Below the pieces are notes generated by a model. It was not told the origin of the DNA. It was given only the letters and a program-made list of their open reading frames with translations, and made no database searches. Positions 3,964-15,921 of a DNA stretch of 32,000 bases are shown piece by piece. The DNA lies in the NCBI GenBank assembly GCA_965219535.1, contig CBDCNV010000002.1, positions 420,001 through 452,000 of the forward strand, written 5' to 3'. The translations under genes were made by a program, and so were the position numbers. The DNA comes from Opitutales bacterium (lineage in GTDB: Bacteria; Verrucomicrobiota; Verrucomicrobiia; Opitutales; PNEW01). Every line of letters begins with the position of its first letter. The stretch's first letter is position 1.

Positions 3964-4944
3964 ATGAAACACAACCTCTATCCATTCTTGATTCCCTTAA
4001 TCTCAATGTGCGCCGTGCTGCCGATGTTCGGTGATGATGAACCTCCGACTTGTGCAGAGCACTCCATCGTGGCCAGTGCGGTGCGCACACAGATGGACAT
4101 ACAGGCATTCGTTCAGTGCGCCTACGAGTACGTCCAGGAAGAGGGTTCCAGTGAGGCACGCAGGGCCTTTAACGAGGACGAGCGTTGGAAAAGCGGACAG
4201 TTTTATGTCTTTGTCGACGAAGTGACATCAATGACCGATATGGCGCGAGCGTTAGTCTACCCGCCCGCCCCTTCAAGGGAAGGGGAACCGTGGGGACTGT
4301 TTGTCGACTCCTTCGGCAACGACTTCTACAGGGAACTATATCGTATCATGAGCATCGTCGAAGAGGGTTGGATCTACTACTCCATAACAAATCCAGCGAC
4401 GGACAGGGAGGAGCCGAAGGCTTCATACGTCAAGAGCATCGACTGGGACGGGACTCCGGCCGCGATTGGCGCGGGGATCTACCAGCGCGACATCCCGGGC
4501 ACGTGCTGGAGTGAAGAGGTCAATGCCATGTTGCTAGATGACGATCCTTCCAACGAGAGGCTCAAGGAGTTTGTCCGTTGCGCTGCGATGGAGCTTGAAA
4601 TGAAAGGCTACTTTGCGATCAACACTTTGACCACGGACCCGCGATGGAAACACGGATCAATCTACTTGTTTGCCATCGATACTTATGGCTACACGCTGTT
4701 CAGTGGCGATTCATACAGCGAGCCGGATGATATAATGTCCGAGTTGGTAGGCCCGGTCGAAGATCAGGATCTTGTGAGCGTAGCGGACGCCTTCGGAGAG
4801 AGCTTCCTGTATTACACGATACGCAATCCGTCGAGTGAGATGGAGGAGCGCAAGGTGTCATTCGTCAAGAGGGTAGTGTCCTTTGGACTGCCAATTCTGA
4901 TTGGCGCCGGCTATTATCTGGAGGACATGGAGGAGAGTCCGTAA
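3964..4944 (+). CDS. Secreted protein with two tandem Cache-like (sCache_2-type) domains, paralog 1
   Basis: Signal peptide MKHNLYPFLIPLISMCAVLPMFG. Two internally repeated modules of about 145 aa each carry a Cys pair (TCAEHS...VQCAYEY and TCWSEEV...VRCAAMEL). Each ends in the Cache_2-like motif G(W/F)(I/L)YY..(T/R)NP........K.S(Y/F)VK........IGAG(I/Y)Y. There is no TM or output domain. Confidence 0.8.
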   Translation: MKHNLYPFLIPLISMCAVLPMFGDDEPPTCAEHSIVASAVRTQMDIQAFVQCAYEYVQEEGSSEARRAFNEDERWKSGQFYVFVDEVTSMTDMARALVYPPAPSREGEPWGLFVDSFGNDFYRELYRIMSIVEEGWIYYSITNPATDREEPKASYVKSIDWDGTPAAIGAGIYQRDIPGTCWSEEVNAMLLDDDPSNERLKEFVRCAAMELEMKGYFAINTLTTDPRWKHGSIYLFAIDTYGYTLFSGDSYSEPDDIMSELVGPVEDQDLVSVADAFGESFLYYTIRNPSSEMEERKVSFVKRVVSFGLPILIGAGYYLEDMEESP

Positions 4945-5193: not shown

Positions 5194-6171
5194 ATGATGA
5201 AAAACCACCTCTGCCCATCATTCTTGATTTCCTTAATCTCAACGTTCGCTGTGCTGCCGATGTCAGGTGCTGATGAAGCTGTGTCTTGCACGGAGCACTC
5301 CATCGCCGCCCGCGCGGTGCGCACCCCTGAGGACATACAGGCGTTCGTTCAGTGCGCCTACGAGTATGTCCGCGCAAAGGGCTTCAGTGAGGCACGCAGG
5401 GCATTTCACGAAGACGAGCGCTGGAGATACGGCCAAATCTATGTCTTCGTCGCCGATGCGACAGACATGACTCAACGATTGGTCGTCTTCCCACCCGACC
5501 CCTCGAGAGAAGGGAAACCGTTGGGACCGCTGGTCGATGCCTTCGGCAACGAATTCTTCAGTGAAGGGCAGCGCACCCTGAGTATCGTCGATGAAGGCTG
5601 GCTCTATTACTCGTTCCCAAATCCAGCGACGGGCAGGGACGAGCCGAAGGCTTCCTATGTTAAAATCATCGACTGGGACGGGACTCCATCCGCGATTGGC
5701 GCGGGGATCTACCGCCGTGACATCCCTGGCGCATGCAACAGTGAAGAAGTCAGTGCCCTGTTGCTAGATGACGATCCGTCCAACGAGAGGCTCAAGGAGT
5801 TTGTCCGTTGCGCTGCGATGGAACTTGAAATGAAAGGCTACTTTGCGATCAACACTTTGACCACGGACCCGCGATGGAAACACGGATCAATCTACTTGTT
5901 TGCCATCGATACTTATGGCTACACGCTGTTCAGTGGCGATTCATACAGTGAGCCGGATACAATGTCCGAGTTGGTAGGACCGATCGAAGACCAGGATCTT
6001 GTGAGCGTAGCGGACGCCTTCGGAGAGAGCTTCCTGTATTACACGATGCGCAATCCGTCGAGTGGAATGGAGGAGCGCAAGGTGTCATTCGTCAAGCGGG
6101 TAGTGTCCTTTGGACTGCCGATTCTGATCGGCGCCGGCTATTATCTGGAGGATATGGAAGAGAGTCCGTAA
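5194..6171 (+). CDS. Secreted tandem Cache-like protein, paralog 2
   Basis: Colinear with 3964..4944. The second ATG (5197) aligns with the paralog 1 start. The N-terminal domain is about 75-80 percent identical at nucleotide level and the C-terminal domain about 96 percent. Confidence 0.8.
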   Translation: MMKNHLCPSFLISLISTFAVLPMSGADEAVSCTEHSIAARAVRTPEDIQAFVQCAYEYVRAKGFSEARRAFHEDERWRYGQIYVFVADATDMTQRLVVFPPDPSREGKPLGPLVDAFGNEFFSEGQRTLSIVDEGWLYYSFPNPATGRDEPKASYVKIIDWDGTPSAIGAGIYRRDIPGACNSEEVSALLLDDDPSNERLKEFVRCAAMELEMKGYFAINTLTTDPRWKHGSIYLFAIDTYGYTLFSGDSYSEPDTMSELVGPIEDQDLVSVADAFGESFLYYTMRNPSSGMEERKVSFVKRVVSFGLPILIGAGYYLEDMEESP

Positions 6172-7277: not shown

Positions 7278-8144
7278 TTACTGTACCAGAGCAAGTGTTA
7301 GTTCCGGCAGGGTGGTATGGGTTTTAACTTTCTTAGACATGGCTCTCTGGGCGTATTCGGCCGGAGGCCGATAGCCCAGAGAACTGTGTGGTCTTTGAGT
7401 ATTATAATCAAGCCGCCAGGCTTCAAGTTTTTCTTTCGCTTCAGCGAGCGTACAAAATAGCTCGGTGTTAAGAAGTTCATCTCGTAAGCGTCCATTGAAG
7501 CTCTCAATATAACCATTCTCTACGGGTTTACCTGGCCGGATAAAATCCAGCTTGATGCCATGGCCATAAGCCCATTCATCCAGTACTTTGCCGGAAAACT
7601 CGGGCCCATTATCGACGGTAATGGTTTGGGGAAGACCGATTCCTGCAGCGGCTTTCATAAGTGCTGCAGCGACTTTGTGCCCACCGATGGACGTATCGAC
7701 CAAAAGCAGTGGGCAAGCTCGGGTGTATTGATCGACAACGGTGAGTATGCGGAAGGGGCGGCCGTTGGTCAGCCGATCGCTCATAAAGTCCATCGACCAG
7801 CGCTCCTGGGCTGCTGAAGCCGCGGGCAGTGAGACCCGTCTTTGCGCGGCACGCTTCTTTCGTTTCTTCGTGCGCACTTCCAGCCCTTCGGCCTTGTAGA
7901 TACGATAAACGCGTTTCTTTCCTACCGTCCAGCCTTCCCGCTTTAATAACACCGTGATTCGCCGATACCCGTAGCGCACGCGCGCTGCGGCGAGGTCACG
8001 GATGCGCATGATCAGCGCACGTTCGTCCTTCTTCACCGGCTGGTAGTTATAACTCGACCAATACAACTTCATCAGCCTGCACGCGCGGCGTTTGCTCACC
8101 TCATAAGCTTCCACTAACCAGTCAGCAATCACCTTCTTGCGCAC
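7278..8144 (-). CDS. IS3-family transposase OrfB (DDE integrase core)
   Basis: 288 aa with the rve-type core (WSMDF...D..TR......S......A....A.......P....DNGPEF........GI......[18 protein letters not shown]). The upstream frame is open to the A7 site, consistent with an OrfAB fusion. Confidence 0.9.
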
Positions 8145-8149
8145 AGGCT

Positions 8150-8422
8150 TTATAATTTTTTTGCGATTACTTCCTGCAGCATGTGCTTGTCCAGGCTCAG
8201 ATCAGCTACCAGCTTCTTCAAACTGGCGTTCTCTTCATCGAGTTGCTTCAGCCGTCTTAATTCGCTCATTCCCATGCCCGCGTATTTACCCTTCCATCGG
8301 TGGTAGGTCTGTTCGCTCACGCCTAACTCTCGGCACACTTCGGCAATCCTTCGTCCGCCTTCTACCTGCCTTAGGGCATAGATGATTTGTTCTTTATTAT
8401 ATCGTTTTCCTTTATTTTTCAT
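8150..8422 (-). CDS. IS3-family transposase OrfA (HTH)
   Basis: 90 aa. [40 protein letters not shown] followed by a leucine-zipper-like [18 protein letters not shown]. Confidence 0.9.
8156..8162 (-). promoter_or_regulatory. Programmed -1 ribosomal frameshift heptamer A-AAA-AAA
   Basis: The - strand reads GCA AAA AAA TTA TAA in the orfA frame. A -1 slip gives [15 protein letters not shown], which continues into OrfB. Confidence 0.75.
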
Positions 8423-8508
8423 GGGTGGTTCTTTCTCCTATTTTTTATTAGGTTTTCCACCCATGCCAGACTAAATCTTTGCTGGTCCAGTTTTATGGGG
8501 ACAGGTCA

Positions 8509-9093
8509 TCTCGTCGCCGACAGAGACGACGAGGGCACTCTACTGGGCTCCCTACCCAAGCAGTAAAGCCGAACCATGTATGGAGTTTGGATTTTGTTGC
8601 CGGCCGCACCGATTGCGGAGGACAACTGCGGATGATGACTTTAATCGATGAGCAGACTCGTCAATGCCTGGCCATAAAGGTATCTCGTTCGCTCAAAAGC
8701 GAAGACGTGGTGGAAGTCTTAGTCGAAGCTATTGAAGAGTATGGCAGACCCCAATGCATCCGCTCCGATAACGGTTCGCAGTTCGTAGCACAAAAAGTCA
8801 GAGAAGCACTCCTCAAGTGCCAGATCGACATTATCTACATCGACCCTGGCAGTCCTTGGCAAAACGGCCATGTTGAATCCTTTCACAATCGACTGCGTGA
8901 CGTACCGAGGAACGTAGTGACGACATAGCGAAGCACTCATGCTTAAACCAAGAGTGGTTTCTAAGCGTTACCGAAGCGCGTGTTGTCATCCATGCGTGGA
9001 AGCAAAAATACAATACCCATCACCCTCATAGTCGTTTAGGCTTTCTCTCTCTAAACGCTTTTGCCAAACTCTGGCAGGAACTCAATCCAACAG
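8509..9093 (+). pseudogene. Fragment of a second IS3-lineage transposase OrfB (copy C), cut at both sides
   Basis: ...NHVWSLDFVAGRTDCGGQLRMMTLIDEQTRQCLAIKV...IRSDNGSQFVAQ...DPGSPWQNGHVESFHNRLRD, then a 37-nt insertion, then (frame shifted) CLNQEWFLSVTEARVVIHAWKQKYNTHHPHSRLGF. The 5' end abuts the IS407-like end at 8508. The 3' end abuts the decayed IS407-like copy. Confidence 0.75.
8903..8939 (+). repeat. Short insertion, family member 4 (37 nt)
   Basis: TACCGAGGAACGTAGTGACGACATAGCGAAGCACTCA lies between RLRD and CLN of copy C. It is absent at the homologous site of the copies at 14741-14760 and 11190-11200. Confidence 0.6.
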
Positions 9094-9765
9094 GTGCTGA
9101 TCGTGCGTATCCGTGATATCGTCGCAGTCCGCGCGCGCTACGGGCATAAGCTGAATCACGCTGTTATTAAATGGGGGAAGTTAGCTTATCGGAAAGAAAC
9201 GGAAGAAGCATGCCGCGAAATAGGCGGATCTCACTGCCCGAGGCTTAGCTGCCCAGGAGTGTTGGTCAATGGACTTTATGAGCGATCGTTTGACCAATGG
9301 TCTCCCCCTTGTGCATGCTTACCATTGTCGATCAGTATCCCCGAGCTTGCCCACTGCTTGTGGTCGATACGTCCATCGGTGGACGCAAAGTCGCTGCAAC
9401 ACTTATGAAAGCCTCTGAAGGAATCGAACTTCCCCAAATCAGTACTGTCGATAATGGTCCCGAGTTTGCAGCCAAAGTACTGGATCAGAAGGCTTATGGC
9501 CACAGCCTCGAACTGGATTTTATCAAGCTAGTCATATCCTTAGAAAATGGCTATATTGAGAGATTCAATGGACGCTTAGGAGATGAACTTCTTAACACCG
9601 AGATATTTTGCATGTCGACTGAAGTTAAAGAATAAAAAAAAGTTGAATCCTGGCGGCTTGATTATAATGTCCAAAGATCACAGTTCTTTGGGCTAATCAA
9701 ATCAAAACTCTTACCATCCTGCCGGATCTAACACTGGCTCTGGTACAGTAAACGGGAGCAGGTCA
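9094..9765 (+). pseudogene. Decayed, 5'-truncated IS407-like copy in inverted orientation
   Basis: Nucleotide-level colinearity with the reverse complement of 7264-8040, with deletions and frameshifts. It ends in the same IR (...CAGTAAACGGGAGCAGGTCA, 9746-9765). ORFs 9061..9408 and 9297..9635 are its broken frames. Confidence 0.8.
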
Positions 9766-9841
9766 ATATATAAATGAAACCATGCACAGCAGTATTTCGC
9801 TATTTTTGAGAAAATAACGTTATTAAAGAATATGATCCTCA

Positions 9842-11095
9842 ATGAAACTGATCGCATTAAAATGTATGTGGCTTAACAGGTTTTTAATTACCACCGGACT
9901 TTTCAACCTGTTCGCATTTTATTGTGAGGCACAAGAAGGACTTGAATTAGGGCGAATTTTACAAAAAGAGATGCCCCCTTTGCTCAAGGAGAGCAAAATT
10001 ATTCTAAATGTCCGCCCGCGCTATGAAACTTCCGATCAGGATGGCCGTGATGATTCTAACGCTGTAACGTTACGTACGCGGTTGGGCTTTAAAACTGGTA
10101 GTTTTAACGGAATTTCTGCCTTGATAGAAATGGAGGATATTCGGGTGATTGGATCGGAGGGTCATTTTAATCCCTACCCACAACCAGGCCGAACGGTAAT
10201 TGCCGATCCTGAAGGAACTGAATTAAATCGAGCTCAAGTTAGTATTACAGGATTTGATACGACAACAATAATTGGTCGACAACGGATCATCTTGGATAAT
10301 GCCCGTTTTATCGGCAATGTCGGATTCCGTCAAAATGAACAGACCTATGATGCGGTCACGGTAACAAATCAAAGTATACCCGATTTTATTTTTTATTATG
10401 GTTATATCGACACGGTGCATCGTATTTTTGGAGACGATGCTCCCCAACCCGCGCAACGGGAATTTAAATCTAGTTCACATTTGATCAAAATGGATTACAA
10501 GGGCCAGAAATCCACTAAACTTACCCTTTATGCCTATCTTCTGGATCTCAATAATGCTGCAGCTAATTCAAGCAATACCTATGGAATGCAGTATTCAGGT
10601 TCGCGCAAAAGCGAAAATGAAATGATCCTCAAATGGCATGTCGAGTTTGCACATCAGACAGATGCCAACAATAATCCATCAAATTACGAAGCCAATTATT
10701 TTCATGTTACCGCATCAACCTATAAGTGTTTTACATTGGGTGCCGGTTACGAACTTTTTGGTAGCGACAACAACCAGGGTTTTCGTACCCCATTAGCCAC
10801 TTTGCATAAATTTAATGGATGGAGTGATGTTTTTCTCTCTACCCCATCTCAAGGGCTGGAAGATATTTATTTGATGGCAGGAATTTCTTTAATGAAAGAT
10901 CTGCCAGCTAAAATTACTGGCCATTGGTTCACAGCTGAGGAAGGTAGTCAGGACTACGGCTATGAGATAGATGCTGTCATCTCCAGAAAGATGAATAAGC
11001 ACTGGTCAATACTGGCGAAATACAGTTATTTTAACGGTGAAAATGGTTTTGCCGATCGGCAGAAGTTCTGGCTGCAGACTGATATTAAATTCTAA
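9842..11095 (+). CDS. Outer-membrane beta-barrel porin, alginate-export-family-like
   Basis: Signal peptide. RPRYE...D......A.TLRTRLG...; GRQRIILDNARFIGNVGFRQNEQTYDA; alternating beta-strand pattern; C-terminal ...WLQTDIKF (terminal Phe). Confidence 0.65.
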   Translation: MKLIALKCMWLNRFLITTGLFNLFAFYCEAQEGLELGRILQKEMPPLLKESKIILNVRPRYETSDQDGRDDSNAVTLRTRLGFKTGSFNGISALIEMEDIRVIGSEGHFNPYPQPGRTVIADPEGTELNRAQVSITGFDTTTIIGRQRIILDNARFIGNVGFRQNEQTYDAVTVTNQSIPDFIFYYGYIDTVHRIFGDDAPQPAQREFKSSSHLIKMDYKGQKSTKLTLYAYLLDLNNAAANSSNTYGMQYSGSRKSENEMILKWHVEFAHQTDANNNPSNYEANYFHVTASTYKCFTLGAGYELFGSDNNQGFRTPLATLHKFNGWSDVFLSTPSQGLEDIYLMAGISLMKDLPAKITGHWFTAEEGSQDYGYEIDAVISRKMNKHWSILAKYSYFNGENGFADRQKFWLQTDIKF

Positions 11096-11230
11096 AATAG
11101 GGCTGTTCAAAGTTGTAGGTCTGACGCCATTGTTCGATTACCCCTTAGGCTTCAGCTACGCTGAGCAACACTTCACGGTTCAAACACTCATCGCGTAATC
11201 GATTGAGAAACGACTCGATGAAACCGTTTG

Positions 11231-11273
11231 TTATTCTCGCTATGGCTCGTTGAGGTGTCGCTTCGCTCGGTAG
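11231..11273 (-). repeat. Short insertion, family member 2 (about 42 nt, in frame)
   Basis: In IS orientation, CTACCGAGCGAAGCGACACCTCAACGAGCCATAGCGAGAATAA lies between ...GGCAGTCCCTGG and CAAACGGTTTCATCGAG. The full copy reads GGCAGTCCCTGGCAAAACGGTTTCATCGAG at 14702-14731. It is translated in frame as PW-LPSEATPQRAIARIT-NGF. Confidence 0.7.
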
Positions 11274-11352
11274 CCAGGGACTGCCCGGATCGCTATAGAT
11301 CGCCTTGATCTTTTTGTCGGACAACCACTGCTGCACCTGATGAGCAATGAAT

Positions 11353-11384
11353 GGCTTCGCATGTCGTCGCTTCGCTCCTCGGAA
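11353..11384 (-). repeat. Short insertion, family member 3 (about 32 nt)
   Basis: In IS orientation, TTCCGAGGAGCGAAGCGACGACATGCGAAGCC lies inside AGTGACAACGGCA..TTCATTGCTCAT, which is uninterrupted in the full copy at 14619-14648. Confidence 0.7.
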
Positions 11385-11648
11385 CATTGCCGTTGTCACT
11401 ACGGATATAGCTGGGAACACCCTCTTTTTCAATGGTCTTGCTGAGAACAGTGCGGATGTCCTTAGAGGTGAGTTGACGAGCTACCCGGATATCCAGACAT
11501 TGACGCGTGTATTCATCGATCCGCACTCCGCGACTACAATTGATGCTCTGTTTGTTTGCTTCAAGTCTCCTCCGGTGATGCGCAACCCTGGATTGCCTAC
11601 AGGCACAGTGAAGGAACCCATAACAAATAATAAATGCGGATGCGCATT

Positions 11649-11804
11649 TGATCGGACCCCGTTTTTCGTACCAATTTAAGTGAGAGAGTTACCGGGTGTT
11701 AATGGTTTTAGGATTGATGTATATGAGAGATCTTGGCGAAGTGAGGGCGTAGCCCGAACGCGGCCAAGATCGGAAAGGAATCTGACAAACTCTTGTGGGC
11801 TTTT
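11649..11804 (-). mobile_element. 156-bp terminal (IRR-side) fragment of the second IS3 lineage (copy B-frag)
   Basis: One mismatch against the reverse complement of 14864-15019. It starts with the IS tip TGATCGGACCCCG and ends 3 nt before the IS1595 element 2 terminal repeat. Confidence 0.85.
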
Positions 11805-11994
11805 AAAGGGAATTATATACAATTTTACCCATCAGGTATTAACCTGATTTATTCTTATACTTCCAATTCTTCTTAGGCGGTTTCATCATAATAGTCTTTG
11901 CTACACGTTCAGGTGTATCATTAATGACTAATATTTTATTCTTTACTGGCCTTCCAGCCTTGGACTTTTCATGTTGTTTATTCACTTCAACTTT

Positions 11995-12450
11995 TTAGTT
12001 TTTCTTTCCGAAACCCCATCCCGCTAAGAATCCCCCTGCTCCACTCACTAAACTTGAGATAATAGGTGTTAGTATATTTGGTTTATCTTTAAACATTACA
12101 ATTACAAATACAAATAGCGCAATAAATGTCATAAATATGCATAGCGCGTAGCGTCTTTTTGAAGAATTTTCTTCTTTATTATTCTGTTCCGCTGCAGCAT
12201 GGAGTGAAAATTCTCGTCCATCATGTTTTTCTGCTAAATCCAAGATTGATGAAATATGTTCAGCGTCCATTTTATGAACTAAAGGATTCCCGGTTTGTGT
12301 GATCCCCATTGACAATTCCATGAATTTCTCCGGCTGCTTATCAGCTAACTTTTTAAAGACACTTTCTAACTGAGGTTCTTCATCTTTTCGGTTGGAATCC
12401 CGATTTTTCTTTTCCGATGGATCTAACGGAAGTTGTGGTTCTTCACTCAT
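11995..12450 (-). CDS. Hypothetical membrane protein (helical N-part plus two C-terminal TM helices; DUF2335-like architecture)
   Basis: 151 aa. The TM segments are YALCIFMTFIALFVFVIVMF and ILTPIISSLVSGAGGFLAGWGFG. Its start overlaps the upstream stop (ATGA at 12447-12450). Confidence 0.5.
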   Translation of the reverse strand: MSEEPQLPLDPSEKKNRDSNRKDEEPQLESVFKKLADKQPEKFMELSMGITQTGNPLVHKMDAEHISSILDLAEKHDGREFSLHAAAEQNNKEENSSKRRYALCIFMTFIALFVFVIVMFKDKPNILTPIISSLVSGAGGFLAGWGFGKKN

Positions 12451-12872
12451 GTATATTTTTTAAAATATTCTAATGTCCACCTTGATGGATTTCTAAAATC
12501 CAATGTTTTGTTTAAAAGATTATTAAACCTTTTATTAATAAATTCTTGGAATGAGTAAGCCATAATTAACTCAGTCTCTTTTTCTGTAAGGGTTTTTTCT
12601 TCGAGTATATCAAGTAAGGTTTTTATGGATTTTTCCATAGATTTTAAATCTTCAGGGTAATTGCTGGATATTTCTTTCCTCTGACTTGATGATAAAGCTA
12701 CTAAAAAATTCTTTAAAAATTCATCTGTACTAAAGTGAATATCTTTTTGAGATTCTTCACGATTTCTATTTAGAGAAGCTAAACTTCCTGACTTAGATAT
12801 AGCGTATTTTGACTCAGCTTCCCTAGCTTCGCGATCAATGTCTTGGAGAATTAATTGTTCAGAGTTACTCAT
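12447..12872 (-). CDS. Hypothetical cytosolic helical protein
   Basis: 141 aa. The ATG lies 2 nt after the transposase stop. No motif recognised. Confidence 0.45.
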   Translation of the reverse strand: MSNSEQLILQDIDREAREAESKYAISKSGSLASLNRNREESQKDIHFSTDEFLKNFLVALSSSQRKEISSNYPEDLKSMEKSIKTLLDILEEKTLTEKETELIMAYSFQEFINKRFNNLLNKTLDFRNPSRWTLEYFKKYT

Positions 12873-12874
12873 AT

Positions 12875-13679
12875 TTATAATGTTAGATCCTTATATCGAA
12901 GTCGCATACCAATTAATCCTTTAGCAATGCGGGACATTTGATTAATAGTATCTAATTTGCGATCATTTGACCTTCCTGCAAACTCTTTTACATACCTTTT
13001 TAAGTGCTTGGCACTCATATGATGGTGTGTTCCATAATACCCGCGCTTCAATAGTGCCCAAAAACTTTCTATGCCATTTGTATGTGTTTGTCCTTGAACG
13101 TATTCCTTTATACTATGCTTAACAGAATAATGTATATTTCTCTTGCTAATCCCTAAGTAGCCTGGATGGTCATCAGTATAAACGATTGCTTTTGTATTCA
13201 CACTTTCCTTTACAAACTTAGTTAATGTCAAGCTGTCAGTAGAATCAATAATTTTCGCCTTGATTTTACCGCCTCTCTCTTTTGCACCAACTACGGCTTT
13301 CTTACCCACAGGCCCGCGTCCTTTATTACTGCGTTTGTTAAAATGTTTATTCTTCTCTTTTCCTCCCATAAAAGTCTCATCTACTTCACCATCTAAAAGA
13401 GAAACATTATCGCCATAAGTTTCACGGATACGCATTCCAAGATGCCAAGCGCTTTTTTGAGTGATGTTTAAATCACTGGCAAGTTTGGTACTCGCGATAC
13501 CTTTTAAGTTTGTTGTCAGTAGATAAATAGCAAAAGCCCAAGTGCGAAAACCTAAATTGCTTCCTTCCATTAATGTGCCTGTTTTCGTGCTAAAATCTTT
13601 ACGGCATGATTTACAACGCCATGACCTTTTTACCGTCTTGCGTTCGCTTACCCTTTCACAACCACAAAGAGGACTGGAG
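12875..13679 (-). pseudogene. IS1595-family transposase, N-terminally truncated
   Basis: The listed ORF 12875..13570 carries the DDE part (VDETFMGGKEKNKH...YTDDHPGY...TNGIESFWALLKRGYYGTHHHMSAKHLKRYVKEFAGRSN). The same frame is open upstream through the zinc ribbon PLCGCERVSERKTVKRSWRCKSCRKDF but has no start codon. The first 45 or so residues seen in copy 1 are missing. Confidence 0.8.
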
Positions 13680-13925
13680 TGACCCCCAAAAATCGTATCA
13701 TTTACAGAGAGAGGTTATCGGGATAAACAGATAACCTCAATGAAAAGAAAAAGATACACAACAGAACAGATTATAACAATATTGCGGCAAGCCGATACCG
13801 GTAAAACGGTACAGGAAATCTGCCGTGGAAACAACCTGAGCGAACAGACTTTCTATCGCTGGCGTAAAAAATATGGCAATTTAGAACTTGCCGATGCGAA
13901 GCGATTTAAAGAGCTGGAAAAAGAA

Positions 13926-13954
13926 TTCACGAGCGCAAGCGAGAAGGCCTGACA
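13926..13954 (+). repeat. Short insertion, family member 5 (27-29 nt, in frame, contains TGA)
   Basis: TTCACGAGCGCAAGCGAGAAGGCCTGACA splits the leucine-zipper segment ELEKE / TELKKLLAD of OrfA. It resembles member 2 (..CGAGCGAAGCGA..). Confidence 0.55.
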
Positions 13955-14020
13955 TACCGAGCTGAAGAAGCTGCTCGCAGATCAAATGCTCAAGAATCAG
14001 GTAATGGAGGAAACGCTGTC

Positions 14021-14027
14021 AAAAAAA
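14021..14027 (+). promoter_or_regulatory. Programmed -1 frameshift heptamer A-AAA-AAA
   Basis: TCA AAA AAA TGG TGA in the orfA frame. The -1 frame continues as KKMVSPKQKKRVVKAAAEKG, which is ORF 14027..14476. Confidence 0.7.
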
Positions 14028-14992
14028 TGGTGAGCCCAAAGCAGAAGAAACGAGTAGTAAAAGCTGCGGCTGAGAAAGGGTTGTGCTCGTTGCGGAGGGC
14101 TTGTGCTTATCTCAGCCTGAGTTGGTCAACGTTCAGTTACCGGCCCAAACAGGCCAGTGAGAAAGCTCAGCGGTTGGTCGAGCGGATTGTGAGCTTGTCC
14201 TGGAAACATCCCCGCTACGGTTACCGGCGCATCCGTGCCTTGCTGGTAAAGGAAGGCTGGACAACAAGCAGGAAGTTTGTCCAGGCGGTACGACGTTCAG
14301 AAGGGCTGCAGGTAAAGCCCCCGAAAAAGGGCAGACACCGTCAAGGAGTCTCTACGGGGTCACCTACTAAAGCAAAGGGTCGCAATCACGTTTGGTCCTG
14401 GGACTTTGTCCATGATCGTACAGACAACGGCGGTCCATTAAAGATGATGACTCTAATCGATGTACCGAGGAGCTGAAAGCGACGACACTCAAGCGAAGCG
14501 AAGACATATACGCGTAAATGCCTGGATATCCGGGTCGCTCGTCAACTCACCTCAACCGATGTCCTCTCTGTGCTTAGCGAGGCCATTGAAGAGGAGGGAC
14601 CTCCCAGCTATATCCGTAGTGACAACGGCAGTGAGTTCATTGCTCATCAAGTGCAGCAGTGGTTGTCCGGTAATAACATAAAGGCGATCTATATCGATCC
14701 GGGCAGTCCCTGGCAAAACGGTTTCATCGAGTCGTTTCACAACCGCTTACGCGATGAGTGTTTGAACCGTGAAGTGTTGCTCAGCGTGGCTGAAGCGCAA
14801 GTGGTAATCGAACAATGGCGTCAGACCTATAACCATGAACATCCCCACAGTCGTTTAGGCTTCAAAAGCCCACAAGAGTTTGTCAGATTCCTTTCCGATC
14901 TTGGCCGCGTTCGGGCTACGCCCTCACTTCGCCAAGATCTCTCATATACATCAATCCTAAAACCATTAACACCCGGTTACTCTCTCACTTAA
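14027..14992 (+). pseudogene. IS3-family OrfB interrupted only by an in-frame insertion carrying TGA (14474-14476)
   Basis: ORFs 14027..14476 and 14570..14992 share one frame. The gap between them translates without further stops (KRRHSSEAKTYTRKCLDIRVARQLTSTDVLSVLSEAIEEEG...). The DDE core is intact (WSWDF...LID...SDNGSEF...DPGSPWQNGFIESFHNRLRDE). Confidence 0.8.
14463..14506 (+). repeat. Short insertion, family member 1 (net +42 nt, in frame, contains TGA)
   Basis: ATCGATG-TACCGAGGAGCTGAAAGCGACGACACTCAAGCGAAGCGAAGACA-TATACGCGTAAATGCCTGGATATC, compared with the uninterrupted ATCGATGAATACACGCGTCAATGTCTGGATATC in copy A (reverse complement of 11488-11520). Confidence 0.75.
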
Positions 14993-15019
14993 ATTGGTAC
15001 GAAAAACGGGGTCCGATCA

Positions 15020-15921
15020 GTGTAGCTGAACCTCCGACTTGCGCGGATCACTCCATCGTGGCCAGCGCGGTGCGCACAACGGGGGACGTAGAAGCGTTCG
15101 TTCAGTGCGCCTACGAGTATGTCCAGGAAGAGGGCTTTGATGAGGCCCGCAGGGCCTTCAACGAAGACGAGCGTTGGAAAAGTGGCCCGATTTATGTCTT
15201 CGTCTCCGAAGCAACAACGATGAGTGATCAAGCGCGACTCTTCGTCTTCCCGCCCGACCGGCCCAAGGAAGGATCGTCGCTAGGGTTGGTGATCGATGCC
15301 TTCAGCAACGACTACTACAAGGAACAGCATCGTATCGTAAGCAGCGTCGGTGAGGGTTGGATTTACTACTCCTTTACAAACCCGGAGACGGGCAGGGATG
15401 AACCGAAGGTTACCTACCTCAAGAACATCGACTGGGACGGGACCCCCGCTGCGATCGGTGCGGGGATCTACCGCCGCGACATCCCCGGTACGTGCAACAG
15501 TGAAGAAGTCAACGCGATGTTGCTCGATGACGATCCTTCCAACGAGAGGCTCAAGGAGTTTGTCCGTTGCGCTGCGATGGAGCTTGAAATGAAGGGCTAC
15601 TTCGCGATCAACACATTGACGAAGGAGCCGCGATGGAAACACGAATCAATCTACTTGTTTGCAATCGATACTTATGGCTATACGCTGTTCAGCGGAGATC
15701 CATACAGCCATTGGTCGGGGGTATCCGAGTTGAAAGGAACGGTTGAAGAACATGATTTAGTGAGCGTTGCAGACGCTTTCGGAGAAAGCTTCCTGTATTA
15801 CACGAAACGCAATCCGGCGAGTGCAATGGAGGAGCGCAAGGTGACTTTCGTTAAAAGGATCGTATCCTTTGGACTGCCGATTCTGATCGGGGCGGGCTAT
15901 TACCTGGATGAGGGTCCGTAA
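15020..15921 (+). pseudogene. Tandem Cache-like protein, paralog 3, lacking start codon and signal peptide (abuts the IS end)
   Basis: Homology to paralog 1 begins at ...GAACCTCCGACTTG (EPPTCADHSIV), directly after the IS tip at 15019. The rest is colinear to the stop at 15919-15921. The listed ORF 15058..15921 starts at an internal GTG-type start. Confidence 0.8.

Follow-up and report, generated by a model that had tools for sequence, protein, structure and literature searches.

A stretch of 32,000 nt of an Opitutales bacterium (contig CBDCNV010000002.1, positions 420,001 to 452,000; the window in the following) contains copies and fragments of insertion sequences (IS) of the IS3 family, whose transposase genes are interrupted at five different sites by short segments that are related to each other. 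What are these segments, and what do they do to the transposase? An earlier note on this DNA had considered three possibilities, a tiny non-autonomous element that strongly prefers this transposase, a device for silencing the transposase, and a coding gap that is removed or bypassed at the RNA or translation level. With a probability of about 70%, all five segments belong to a family of very small, structured, non-autonomous repeats endemic to Opitutales, which replace an AR dinucleotide of their target, and the IS3 elements were merely disrupted by them. The repeat is present in many near-identical copies at unrelated sites. Occupied and empty versions of homologous sites are found in five kinds of DNA, and the ends of the element, its target, its structure, and the breadth of its occurrence could be defined.

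Junctions and effects of the five inserts

The junctions were fixed by aligning the full-length IS3 copy of the window with an intact relative from a related metagenome-assembled genome (L003:9640-11060) and with a copy carrying four inserts, and by aligning the three window copies with each other. In these alignments, each of the five inserts takes the place of a dinucleotide of its empty site, and there is no target duplication (Table 1). Every insert starts with T(A/T)CC (TTCA in insert E) and ends with CA. All five are in sense orientation, and in translation the CCGAG core always has the same codon phase. The inserts are absent from the intact relatives. The earlier note had thus correctly recognised five related inserts at five sites and their common phase. 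Its coordinates hold for inserts E, A, and C, while insert B had been taken one nucleotide too short and insert D was shifted by one to two nucleotides.

In orfA, insert E replaces the AA of the Asn codon in LEKE-N-TELKK and introduces an in-frame TGA, and in orfB insert A does the same with the AA of the Glu codon in LID-E-YTR, also with an in-frame TGA. Insert B replaces the AG of the Glu codon in SDNGS-E-F and causes a frameshift, insert C takes the place of the second and third base of the Glu codon in RLRD-E-CL and leads to a frameshift followed by a stop, and insert D replaces the AA of the Gln codon in PW-Q-NGFIES, stays in frame without a stop codon, as had been noted before, and adds 14 residues. 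Insert B lies three residues past what we take to be the second catalytic Asp of the IS3 transposase and insert D a few residues before the presumed catalytic Glu, so that both sites presumably belong to the DDE core. The inserts of the window are plain lesions, of which two introduce an in-frame TGA, two shift the frame, and one adds 14 residues near the catalytic Glu.

The inserts share mini-hairpin motifs, which are GCGAAGC in inserts A to D (two of them in insert B), the compensated form ACGTAGT as the first mini-hairpin of insert C, and the GCGNNAGC motif in insert E (GCGCAAGC). The motif, as a 21-mer, matches twice in the window with at most three mismatches and not once in 100 shuffles, and it is thus present far beyond chance. 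In agreement with the earlier note, a fuzzy search did not find a further copy in the rest of the window.

Table 1. Inserts and IS3 copies in the window.
Feature	Position	Strand	Description
Insert E	13926-13954	+	29 nt, net gain 27 nt; empty site AAGAA[AA]CACC; sequence TTCACGAGCGCAAGCGAGAAGGCCTGACA
Insert A	14463-14506	+	44 nt, net gain 42 nt; empty site GATG[AA]TATACG; sequence TACCGAGGAGCTGAAAGCGACGACACTCAAGCGAAGCGAAGACA
Insert B	11352-11384	-	33 nt, net gain 31 nt; empty site CAGTG[AG]TTCATT; sequence TTCCGAGGAGCGAAGCGACGACATGCGAAGCCA
Insert D	11229-11272	-	44 nt, net gain 42 nt; empty site CTGGC[AA]AACGG; sequence TACCGAGCGAAGCGACACCTCAACGAGCCATAGCGAGAATAACA
Insert C	8903-8939	+	37 nt, net gain 35 nt; empty site GATG[AG]TGTTTG (T or C at the third position); sequence TACCGAGGAACGTAGTGACGACATAGCGAAGCACTCA
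Full-length IS3-family element	13680-15019	+	TG...CA ends; interrupted solely by inserts E and A
orfA start, A7 slippery site, orfB end	13740, near 14022, 14992	+	within the 13680-15019 copy
Truncated copy of the same IS lineage	11100-11524	-	orfB from about DEYTR to near the C-terminus; inserts B and D, no insert C
Separate fragment of another copy of the same IS	11649-11808	-	3'-terminal 160 nt; no insert; 98.75% identity to 14860-15019 (blastn)
orfB fragment of a distinct, more distant IS3 lineage	8500-9116	+	carries insert C (translation, alignment)

A canonical unit with conserved structure

Scanning marine metagenomes with a longer pattern gave 74 matches in 42 different contexts. Their consensus, TTCCGAGGA-[R]CG[N]AG[Y]-GACGACA[W]-GACCGG-(3-5 bp stem, GNA-type loop)-CCGGAnCA, describes a canonical unit that is about 50 nt long. 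It consists of the 5' box T(T/A)CCGAGGA, the mini-hairpin GCGNAGC or GCGNNAGC, the spacer GACGACA(A/T), and, as the fourth part, a hairpin with a GNA-type loop followed by the 3' end ...C(C)A. The window inserts are shortened or variant units that consist of the 5' half and a reduced second mini-hairpin.

Across 29 distinct units, 92.4% of the cells are paired compared to 82.9% in shuffles, none of 500 of which reached the observed value. The covariation score is 0.353 compared to 0.167, and in slid controls 17-37% are paired. Of the 29 units, 17 have G-C, 11 have A-U, and one has G-U as the outer mini-hairpin pair, and the second hairpin contains five pairs with changes on both sides. Pair counts and covariation together support both hairpins and indicate that the structure of the element is under selection. 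GCGNAGC and GCGNNAGC are known as extraordinarily stable DNA mini-hairpin motifs (PMC13037366).

At the RNA level, six inserts folded with their flanks and two reverse complements did not score better than shuffles (z between -1.35 and +0.9), so that a fold of the RNA on its own is not supported. Rfam gave no match in 8300-15300 of the window at E <= 5, and for 20 loci nothing reached the gathering score except tRNAs and an S-adenosylmethionine (SAM) riboswitch. The sole weak match, to Acido-Lenti-1 with 26 bits (gathering score 37), concerns the host hairpin of PVC repeats and is taken up below. Units of a short form (CTACCGAGCG..GCGACATCTTCCAyTCCAGG) also occur as an inverted pair of about 100 nt that resembles a miniature palindromic element (L043:5290-5410; L001:18215-18280). 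This pair adjoins a GTCATTGCGAGGAGC..GCGACGAAGC sequence, a type common in Alphaproteobacteria and Chloroflexi.

Target and occurrence outside IS3

With the pattern CGAGGARCGNAGYGACGACA, more than 118 matching stretches were found in a collection of species-representative genomes, concentrated in Opitutales, Puniceicoccaceae, Pelagicoccus, and Lentimonas. The isolate genomes of Pelagicoccus mobilis and strain DG1235 are among the carriers. In the metagenome contexts, TG forms the left flank in 30 of 42 cases, and A is the first base on the right in 26 of 42. Many of these copies lie within tandem hexamer- or heptamer-like repeats such as (GAAAGTG)n, with flanks that fit GTG[AA]AGTG. As judged from such flanks and from empty sites, the element inserts at (T)G^AR in a single orientation, with the AR dinucleotide being replaced and no duplication being formed.

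The contexts are diverse. A second IS3 lineage carries the element at the site homologous to site B. In an IS5-family transposase (DEET[VPRNVVTTTAKRS]FQVMDRF) it splits the DUF772 domain in two, and an element much like insert C is found in an IS5-family transposase of Lentimonas. Remnants of group II intron reverse transcriptases are also among the Opitutales contexts. Intergenic copies follow stop codons, and Pelagicoccus and strain DG1235 contain free-standing modules of 46 nt, which insert A closely resembles. A tandem array provides another pair of filled and empty sites, the hairpin CACAGACAGG[AA]TGTCTGTG, which is present with a 35-nt unit and also without it. The 3' ends of tRNA-Ser and tRNA-Arg have pseudo-copies downstream of the respective intact genes, and in these the element occupies the T-loop (TTCG[AA]TC). 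We had considered an interruption of tRNA or tmRNA (transfer-messenger RNA) genes themselves and dropped it, as functional tRNAs are spared. Each tRNA locus has one or two pseudo-copies, as found at the borders of integrated elements (L012:6740-7058(-), L080:1052-1331(-), L015:1-239(-), L058:370-450(-), L056, L098, L025), and in Woeseiaceae the same arrangement is seen in an apparent tmRNA or tRNA 3' end finishing ...CCCCTGGCCACCA. The IMG/VR viral collection contains the real element in just two of ten matches and thus gives no evidence for phages as the main carrier.

A targeting of hairpin loops holds for some of these contexts (hairpins, the tandem array, T-loops). For the IS3 sites this idea was rejected, because DNA folds of the five empty sites there did not reveal a consistent loop at the insertion point.

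With at least 42 contexts that include intergenic DNA and host genes, the tiny non-autonomous element of the earlier note stands, and its strong preference for the transposase does not. The breadth also bears on the proposal that a host or a competing element places the inserts to inactivate transposases or other mobile DNA. Many matches are indeed related to mobile DNA, namely three IS3 lineages, the IS5 transposase, remnants of group II introns, and the pseudo-copies of tRNA 3' ends, which are characteristic of island borders, and sites B and D fall into the catalytic core. However, the element is found equally in housekeeping genes and intergenic repeats, and mobile elements are multi-copy and dispensable, which biases retention and sampling towards them. 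In addition, no effector gene is associated with the element in 121 loci of 1.4-21 kb, and insert-bearing IS copies still proliferate. Apart from the inserts being disruptive there is no support for a silencing device, and we regard it as highly improbable.

In-frame copies in host genes

As read from the consensus, all six frames of the canonical unit are free of stop codons, and the modal length corresponds to a net gain of 48 nt. The unit can thus persist as a translated loop in real proteins. The clearest example is a PolX of 590 residues from a marine Opitutales metagenome-assembled genome (MAG). The Thermus thermophilus PolX aligns to its residues 2-281 and 309-589 (E = 3e-117), leaving 27 extra residues in between. 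Orthologues form a clade of 597-residue proteins with the sequence ..VPRSEATTRPGAERTG.. and forms of 580 residues with about 90% identity that lack it, and comparison of the DNA places the unit after CTG^A. Further in-frame copies are present in UvrA, PurL, an RfbB-like dehydratase, and a molybdopterin oxidoreductase, as well as in a 160-residue open reading frame (ORF) on contigs of the IMG/VR viral collection. The coding copies in these five genes, in PolX, and in the IS5 transposase are in sense orientation and read ..VPRSEATTRPGA.., and the element in host genes is predicted to be translated as a conserved peptide.

The earlier note had reasoned that a specificity for the transposase would fail if the motif were found genome-wide, at similar density and with random phase, in unrelated coding and non-coding DNA. 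The motif does occur in both, and its phase is not random, as the common phase recurs in unrelated genes. We considered this codon phase as proof of a translation-linked mechanism and rejected it, because (T)G^AR favours Glu and Asp codons, by which roughly half of the sites are estimated to be in phase, and selection on the peptide may add to this. The phase regularity is real, but it is not decisive.

In orthologous dehydratase genes (L134 and L183, after ...YWRSLPEAG) the element is found in the same loop in different frames, ..CVPRSVATTRPDAKRTGTS.. in one and ..GSEERSDDKTGRIADRTK.. in the other. It is surrounded by residues derived from hexamer repeats. Short repeats seem to have a hot spot in this loop.

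The interrupted IS3 element and its relatives

The host of the window inserts is an ordinary IS3-family element, of which apparently active, insert-free copies exist. The full-length window copy is 93.6% identical in nucleotides to the intact relative at L003:9640-11060. When inserts E and A are excised, orfA (88 aa) and orfB (307 aa) are open, which agrees with the earlier claim that these two inserts, each with a TGA and with net gains of 27 and 42 nt, are the sole defects of this copy. A 2-nt gap at reference position 1280 falls at or after the preserved TAA stop and is therefore not counted as a lesion. Homologues of the reconstructed OrfB are intact, insert-free proteins of 306-307 residues with 92-93% identity, located on contigs of 2-2.9 Mb. 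According to Pfam they contain HTH_21, rve, and rve_3, and the upstream OrfA of 88 residues contains HTH_Tnp_1. The family features are thus complete in homologue domains, sequence, and translation, with a helix-turn-helix OrfA, a DDE rve domain in OrfB, an A6G/A7 frameshift site, and TG...CA ends. By genome scan the lineage belongs to Opitutales (Verrucomicrobiota). At the slippery site between orfA and orfB, the window copy has A AAA AAA T (14020-14030) and intact relatives have A AAA AAG T (L003:9990-10000), a G-to-A change within the programmed frameshift motif.

The truncated copy at 11100-11524 was found by searching the window with the full-length copy (blastn), followed by alignment and translation. 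The earlier note had assigned all copies to one IS3 lineage, which holds for the main copies and fails for the fragment at 8500-9116, whose flanks are just 65-66% identical to the main lineage.

The search for OrfB homologues also returned proteins with the same inserts at the same sites, for example PW[LPSEATPQRAIARI]TNG at site D, DNGS[VPRSEATTCEA... at site B, and RLGD[VPRNVVTT at site C. Insert A is present at its site in at least nine copies of related genomes, insert D also in otherwise full-length predicted proteins (e.g. P0014, 321 aa), and insert E in none of about 17 other IS copies scored. The combinations scored are none, B, A+B, A+B+C, A+B+D+C, D+C, C, E+A (the full-length window copy), and B+D (the window fragment). 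All four gametes are present for the site pairs A/B, B/D, and D/C, which means that the inserts behave like alleles that are reshuffled by recombination or by recurrent precise gain.

Outside the window, nine of 13 insert-bearing copies contain extra stops or frameshifts and a tenth is truncated at its 5' end, while the insert-free copies are intact (3/3). A TAG at OrfB codon 22 is common to seven A+B-bearing copies at different loci, and others have extra frameshifts or another stop. The insert-bearing sublineage is thus defective and yet still copied, the insert-bearing copies presumably being mobilised in trans by transposase from intact copies.

Are the inserts bypassed or removed?

Programmed translational bypassing is known from T4 gene 60 and the byp elements of Magnusiomyces mitochondria. 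Like the byp elements, the inserts are short (27-55 nt), related to each other, placed at many coding positions, and in part equipped with in-frame stops. If the ribosome skipped the inserts or if they were excised from the mRNA, the transposase would be functional. This would suit the full-length copy, in which the inserts are the sole defects and net multiples of three, the uniform orientation and codon phase, and the presence of insert-bearing copies at several loci. However, the net gains of inserts B and C (31 and 35 nt) are not frame-neutral, and none of the five sites offers an identical or near-cognate in-frame pair of take-off and landing codons. The codons at the junctions are GAT|GTA...ACA|TAT for insert A and GAA|TTC...CAT|ACC for insert E, and a GAC within insert A that might serve for landing is not in frame. 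In addition, neither the RNA folds nor Rfam gave a signal, and the genes that carry inserts decay in contrast to the insert-free copies. Unlike bypass elements, the unit is also common in non-coding DNA and is translated where it resides in host genes. We therefore consider recoding of the transposase, as proposed in the earlier note, extremely unlikely.

Same variants in diverged lineages

Insert B is identical (33/33) at the homologous codon of the second IS3 lineage (L003:16511-16543 compared to L066:936-968 and L004:2242-2274(-)), and insert C agrees in 36/37 positions with the insert that the main lineage carries at the homologous site (window 8903-8939 compared to L003:16707-16743). The flanking 100 nt are just 60-67% identical, and the three to five bases that adjoin the insert differ between the lineages. 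Either the insertion is precise and recurrent, with a target recognition specific for the variant, or a patch was transferred that ends exactly at the ends of the insert. A 21-nt version of insert B is found in frame in P0010 (313 aa, 42 member sequences; L122:3480-3670), AGTG|TTCCGAGGAGCGAAGCG|AGTG|AG, in an otherwise intact OrfB. It may be either the ancestral form with a 4-nt duplication or the product of a secondary deletion that restored the frame.

These patterns also raise the possibility that short oligonucleotides or ectopic templates were captured at DNA breaks, by non-homologous end joining or microhomology-mediated synthesis, and were then distributed by short-patch gene conversion. 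The absence of a target duplication and the loss of one or two nucleotides at every junction would be expected, the four-gamete patterns call for recombination or recurrence, the identical variants at the same codon of diverged lineages could be converted patches, and the 21-nt version in P0010 ends in a duplicated AGTG. But the constant ends TWCC...CA, the fixed orientation to (T)G^AR, and the TG on the left in 30 of the 42 contexts indicate a specific reaction and not a joining of random ends. Conversion tracts would need to end precisely where the insert ends although the next three to five nucleotides differ between the lineages, and the covariation reveals selection on the element's own structure. 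Repair capture is accordingly an unlikely source of the inserts.

How the element may move

The reading that we prefer is a dispersed repeat that disrupted the IS3 copies. The element integrates one-way at 5'-(T)G^AR, replacing AR and forming no duplication, and having landed in IS3 copies it acts there as a disruptive lesion. The dead or non-autonomous insert-bearing IS would still be copied to new loci by transposase from intact copies, and the insert alleles would be reshuffled among the IS copies by recombination or recurrent precise insertion. The element itself might be moved in trans by a hairpin-recognising enzyme. Because of the GCGNAGC and GCGNNAGC DNA mini-hairpins and the missing duplication, this could be a single-strand DNA transposase of the HUH/Y1 type.

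Alternatively, the element could be transcribed, typically within a host transcript, and return to the DNA by way of a reverse-transcribed intermediate. An RNA-mediated route has reportedly been speculated upon for the small dispersed repeats of cyanobacteria. We keep this route open because of the sense bias and the CCA-like 3' end. Copies in genes and tRNA-derived fragments are almost always in sense, intergenic copies lean towards sense (about 11 to 6 in a rough ORF-based count), and the 3' end often reads ...ACCA or CCA after the helix, like a tRNA acceptor end. In addition, G-U is present and A-C absent at the covarying pair of the mini-hairpin, and remnants of group II intron reverse transcriptases are nearby at two loci. 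Against this, mini-hairpins with GNA triloops are typical of DNA and not of RNA (PMC13037366), the 121 loci do not contain a consistently linked reverse transcriptase, and the orientation bias in ORFs could stem from selection on the peptide, the ORF-based count being crude. On balance an RNA intermediate seems improbable, to about the same degree as repair capture.

Several observations speak against a simple dispersed repeat. Simple transposition with low specificity does not predict the same variant (36/37; 33/33) at homologous codons of IS3 lineages that are 33-40% diverged and have different junction bases. The coding copies, all but one or two, share orientation and frame as in IS3, which is only partly explained by selection on the peptide and the G^AR target with its Glu and Asp codons. 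The full-length window copy has no lesion beyond its two inserts, and in this copy, taken alone, the inserts might be tolerated. One tRNA-Ser case fits just a replacement of one nucleotide. The loss of two target bases is neatly compatible neither with an HUH nor with an RNA route. To our knowledge, a 2-nt target replacement is not a product of DDE, HUH, or recombinase mechanisms. Finally, when the 3,767 ORFs of the 121 loci were clustered all-against-all, no protein family recurred beside the element across contexts save IS3 transposase and generic families, and neither an HUH nor a reverse transcriptase protein is encoded in the window.

A more far-reaching version of the dispersed repeat would be an element that is still active and mobilised in trans, possibly by a new HUH-type or reverse transcriptase-linked enzyme, about 20-50 nt long, based on GNA mini-hairpins, replacing two bases, frame-neutral and thus at home in protein loops and junk DNA alike, and with a core that has spread to hairpin repeats of several bacterial phyla and the DPANN archaea. 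We put this forward tentatively and think it rather doubtful. If true, the element would be among the smallest mobile DNAs known, and its recurrence at the same codon in diverged IS lineages would reveal a target recognition beyond the dinucleotide. CRISPR repeats or spacers, inteins, group I or II introns, and sequencing adapters were dropped as identities of the inserts by reasoning on size, sequence, or the presence in isolate genomes.

The window transposase copies are accordingly ordinary casualties of a small repeat and not an example of recoding. The annotation of genomes is also affected, as the element generates false pseudogenes and loops of 16-17 residues in proteins such as PolX, UvrA, and PurL. 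It also marks a defective IS3 sublineage that is still spreading. The origin and mobility of very short dispersed repeats, such as palindromic repeats without a transposase and the elements of Rickettsia and Nostocaceae compared below, are long-standing loose ends. The present family is clean material in this respect, as filled and empty sites are known exactly in several kinds of DNA, target and ends are defined, the covarying structure includes the classic DNA mini-hairpin, and there are dozens of near-identical copies in abundant marine Opitutales, and the mechanism is thereby testable.

The core in other phyla and other features of the window

In Planctomycetota, Chloroflexota, Alphaproteobacteria, Spirochaetota, Woeseiaceae, and DPANN archaea, the 20-mer core forms the loop between unrelated complementary arms. 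Hairpin repeats GCCATTAGCCGGGGGT...ACCCCCGG of Planctomycetota, Verrucomicrobiota, and other phyla weakly resemble Acido-Lenti-1. They carry a core of 19-20 nt in place of the 4-nt loop of that family and are arranged in inverted pairs at a distance of about 120 nt, similar to REPINs (L005:2034-2094(-), 2195-2249; L027, L049, L065, L076, L077, L087, L088, L103, L119, L120). In archaea, a conserved sequence of about 70 nt, GCTGGTCGGnCGGGGGTTGnCCCnTACGGGGTGnCCGA[core]GCCGCC, contains the identical 20-nt core between arms that pair with G-U wobble (L007, L033, L061, L078, L084, L089, and L101, from Woesearchaeota, Nanoarchaeota, and a bin labelled Methanosarcinales), and no Rfam family matches this sequence. 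In MAGs of Spirochaetales and Treponema (L019:40-110(-), L042, L108), CTTAACCTGCGAGGCG...GATTCTTGC[core]GCAAGAATCG...CGCCGAGTCAGGTTGAAG adjoins a gene start, the core being in the loop of a perfect 9-bp palindrome with long-range pairing around it, and this region has no Rfam match either.

The window further contains three paralogous Cache-domain genes (3964-4944, 5194-6171, 15058-15921). The full-length IS3 copy is located directly upstream of the third of them or in its 5' end (15027-15100 compared to 4038-4111 and 5274-5347). Other mobile elements at 1275-2225, 12875-13570, and 7278-8144 comprise two IS1595-family transposases, of which one is split and the other intact, and an OrfB of 288 residues from another IS3 lineage that looks intact. 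The small element was not seen in the IS1595-family transposases of the window or in the 288-residue OrfB.

Comparison with known systems

A literature search by sequence words returned nothing relevant. Among the closest systems are the palindromic repeats with GTAG or CGTC tags known as REP and REPIN (PMC3733652, Di Nocera et al. 2013; PMC3116915, Bertels & Rainey 2011; PMC6006769, Quentin et al. 2018). Like these, the element has 20-50 nt, forms hairpins, and is present in high copy number, dispersed, and mostly intergenic downstream of genes. Both have compensatory changes in stems and short unpaired 3' tails, often CCA, and both are at times found in ORFs, the present element in UvrA and PolX. 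REPs within ORFs are most frequent in the verrucomicrobium Opitutus terrae, often in DNA-repair genes such as uvrA (PMC3733652). We considered a membership in the GTAG REPs of O. terrae, which was rejected because their encoded peptides GTGVPPV and VGPALAAG are unrelated. An imperfect palindrome with a stem of 6-13 bp that fills most of the unit, as in REPs, is not found in the present element: the 3' half forms a hairpin of 7-8 bp, while the 5' half is not palindromic, its 25 nt containing just a mini-hairpin of 2 bp. A GTAG or CGTC tag is missing from the defining position, the ends being TTCCGAGG... and ...CCGGAnCA, and some short forms start with CTAC, which is then on the wrong side of the hairpin. 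A further difference is the (T)G^AR target with dinucleotide replacement, and in the 121 loci no recurring protein family corresponds to a REP-associated tyrosine transposase (RAYT, TnpA(REP)). In Alphaproteobacteria and Chloroflexi the 20-nt core is the enlarged loop in hairpins of the CGTC type, GTCATTG[core]CAATCCA, which makes it a guest in such repeats and not a member.

With the palindrome-associated transposable elements (PATEs) derived from IS200/IS605 and other HUH/Y1 single-strand DNA systems, the element shares two hairpins near the ends, the absence of a duplication, an orientation fixed by a short motif, and presumably mobilisation in trans (PMC6006769). It is far shorter than known PATEs, its target comprises just about 2-3 nt, and the junction loses bases. 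Hairpins, missing duplication, and TG preference are thus as in the IS200/IS605 type, the loss of two target nucleotides is not expected of it, and neither a TnpA nor a RAYT was identified in the 121 loci. Miniature inverted-repeat transposable elements (MITEs) differ in that the unit has no terminal inverted repeat, no duplication, and a lost AR dinucleotide; the inverted pair of short units of about 100 nt is not the unit of the window. A self-splicing intron or other structured RNA does not fit units of merely 29-50 nt that have no Rfam match in 8300-15300.

The Rickettsia palindromic elements (RPEs) are said to have been described by Ogata et al. in 2000 as selfish DNA in protein-coding genes. 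Both these and the present element are located in frame in unrelated functional genes, are translated as extra surface loops, and have no stops in the frames used. The in-frame PolX insertion, which is absent from orthologues with about 90% identity, is of this kind, and UvrA, PurL, the dehydratase, and the molybdopterin oxidoreductase likewise carry a unit. RPE-1 elements are palindromes of 100-150 bp confined to Rickettsia, whereas the present element has 20-50 nt and a conserved sequence of its own, also disrupts genes, and spans Verrucomicrobiota, with its core in other phyla. RPEs are referred to in PMC3733652.

The present element resembles, by description, a further class in that it is found within tandem heptamer-like repeats, at the centre of palindromes (as SDR5 in HIP1), and in other mobile elements. 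This class are the small dispersed repeats (SDRs) of Nostocaceae, for which Elhai et al. in 2008 reportedly found 21-27 nt, a conserved structure with compensatory changes, and apparent mobility. SDRs were reported solely in Nostocaceae, and the phylum differs, as presumably does the sequence. The work of Elhai et al. 2008 is cited in PMC5861425, PMC3116915, and PMC2884548.

The observation in the window is thus real and non-random, and the element is best filed as a short, structured, dispersed repeat that is REP-, RPE-, and SDR-like. Within that class its mini-hairpin architecture, the replacement of a dinucleotide at (T)G^AR, and the frame-neutral colonisation of proteins are unusual.

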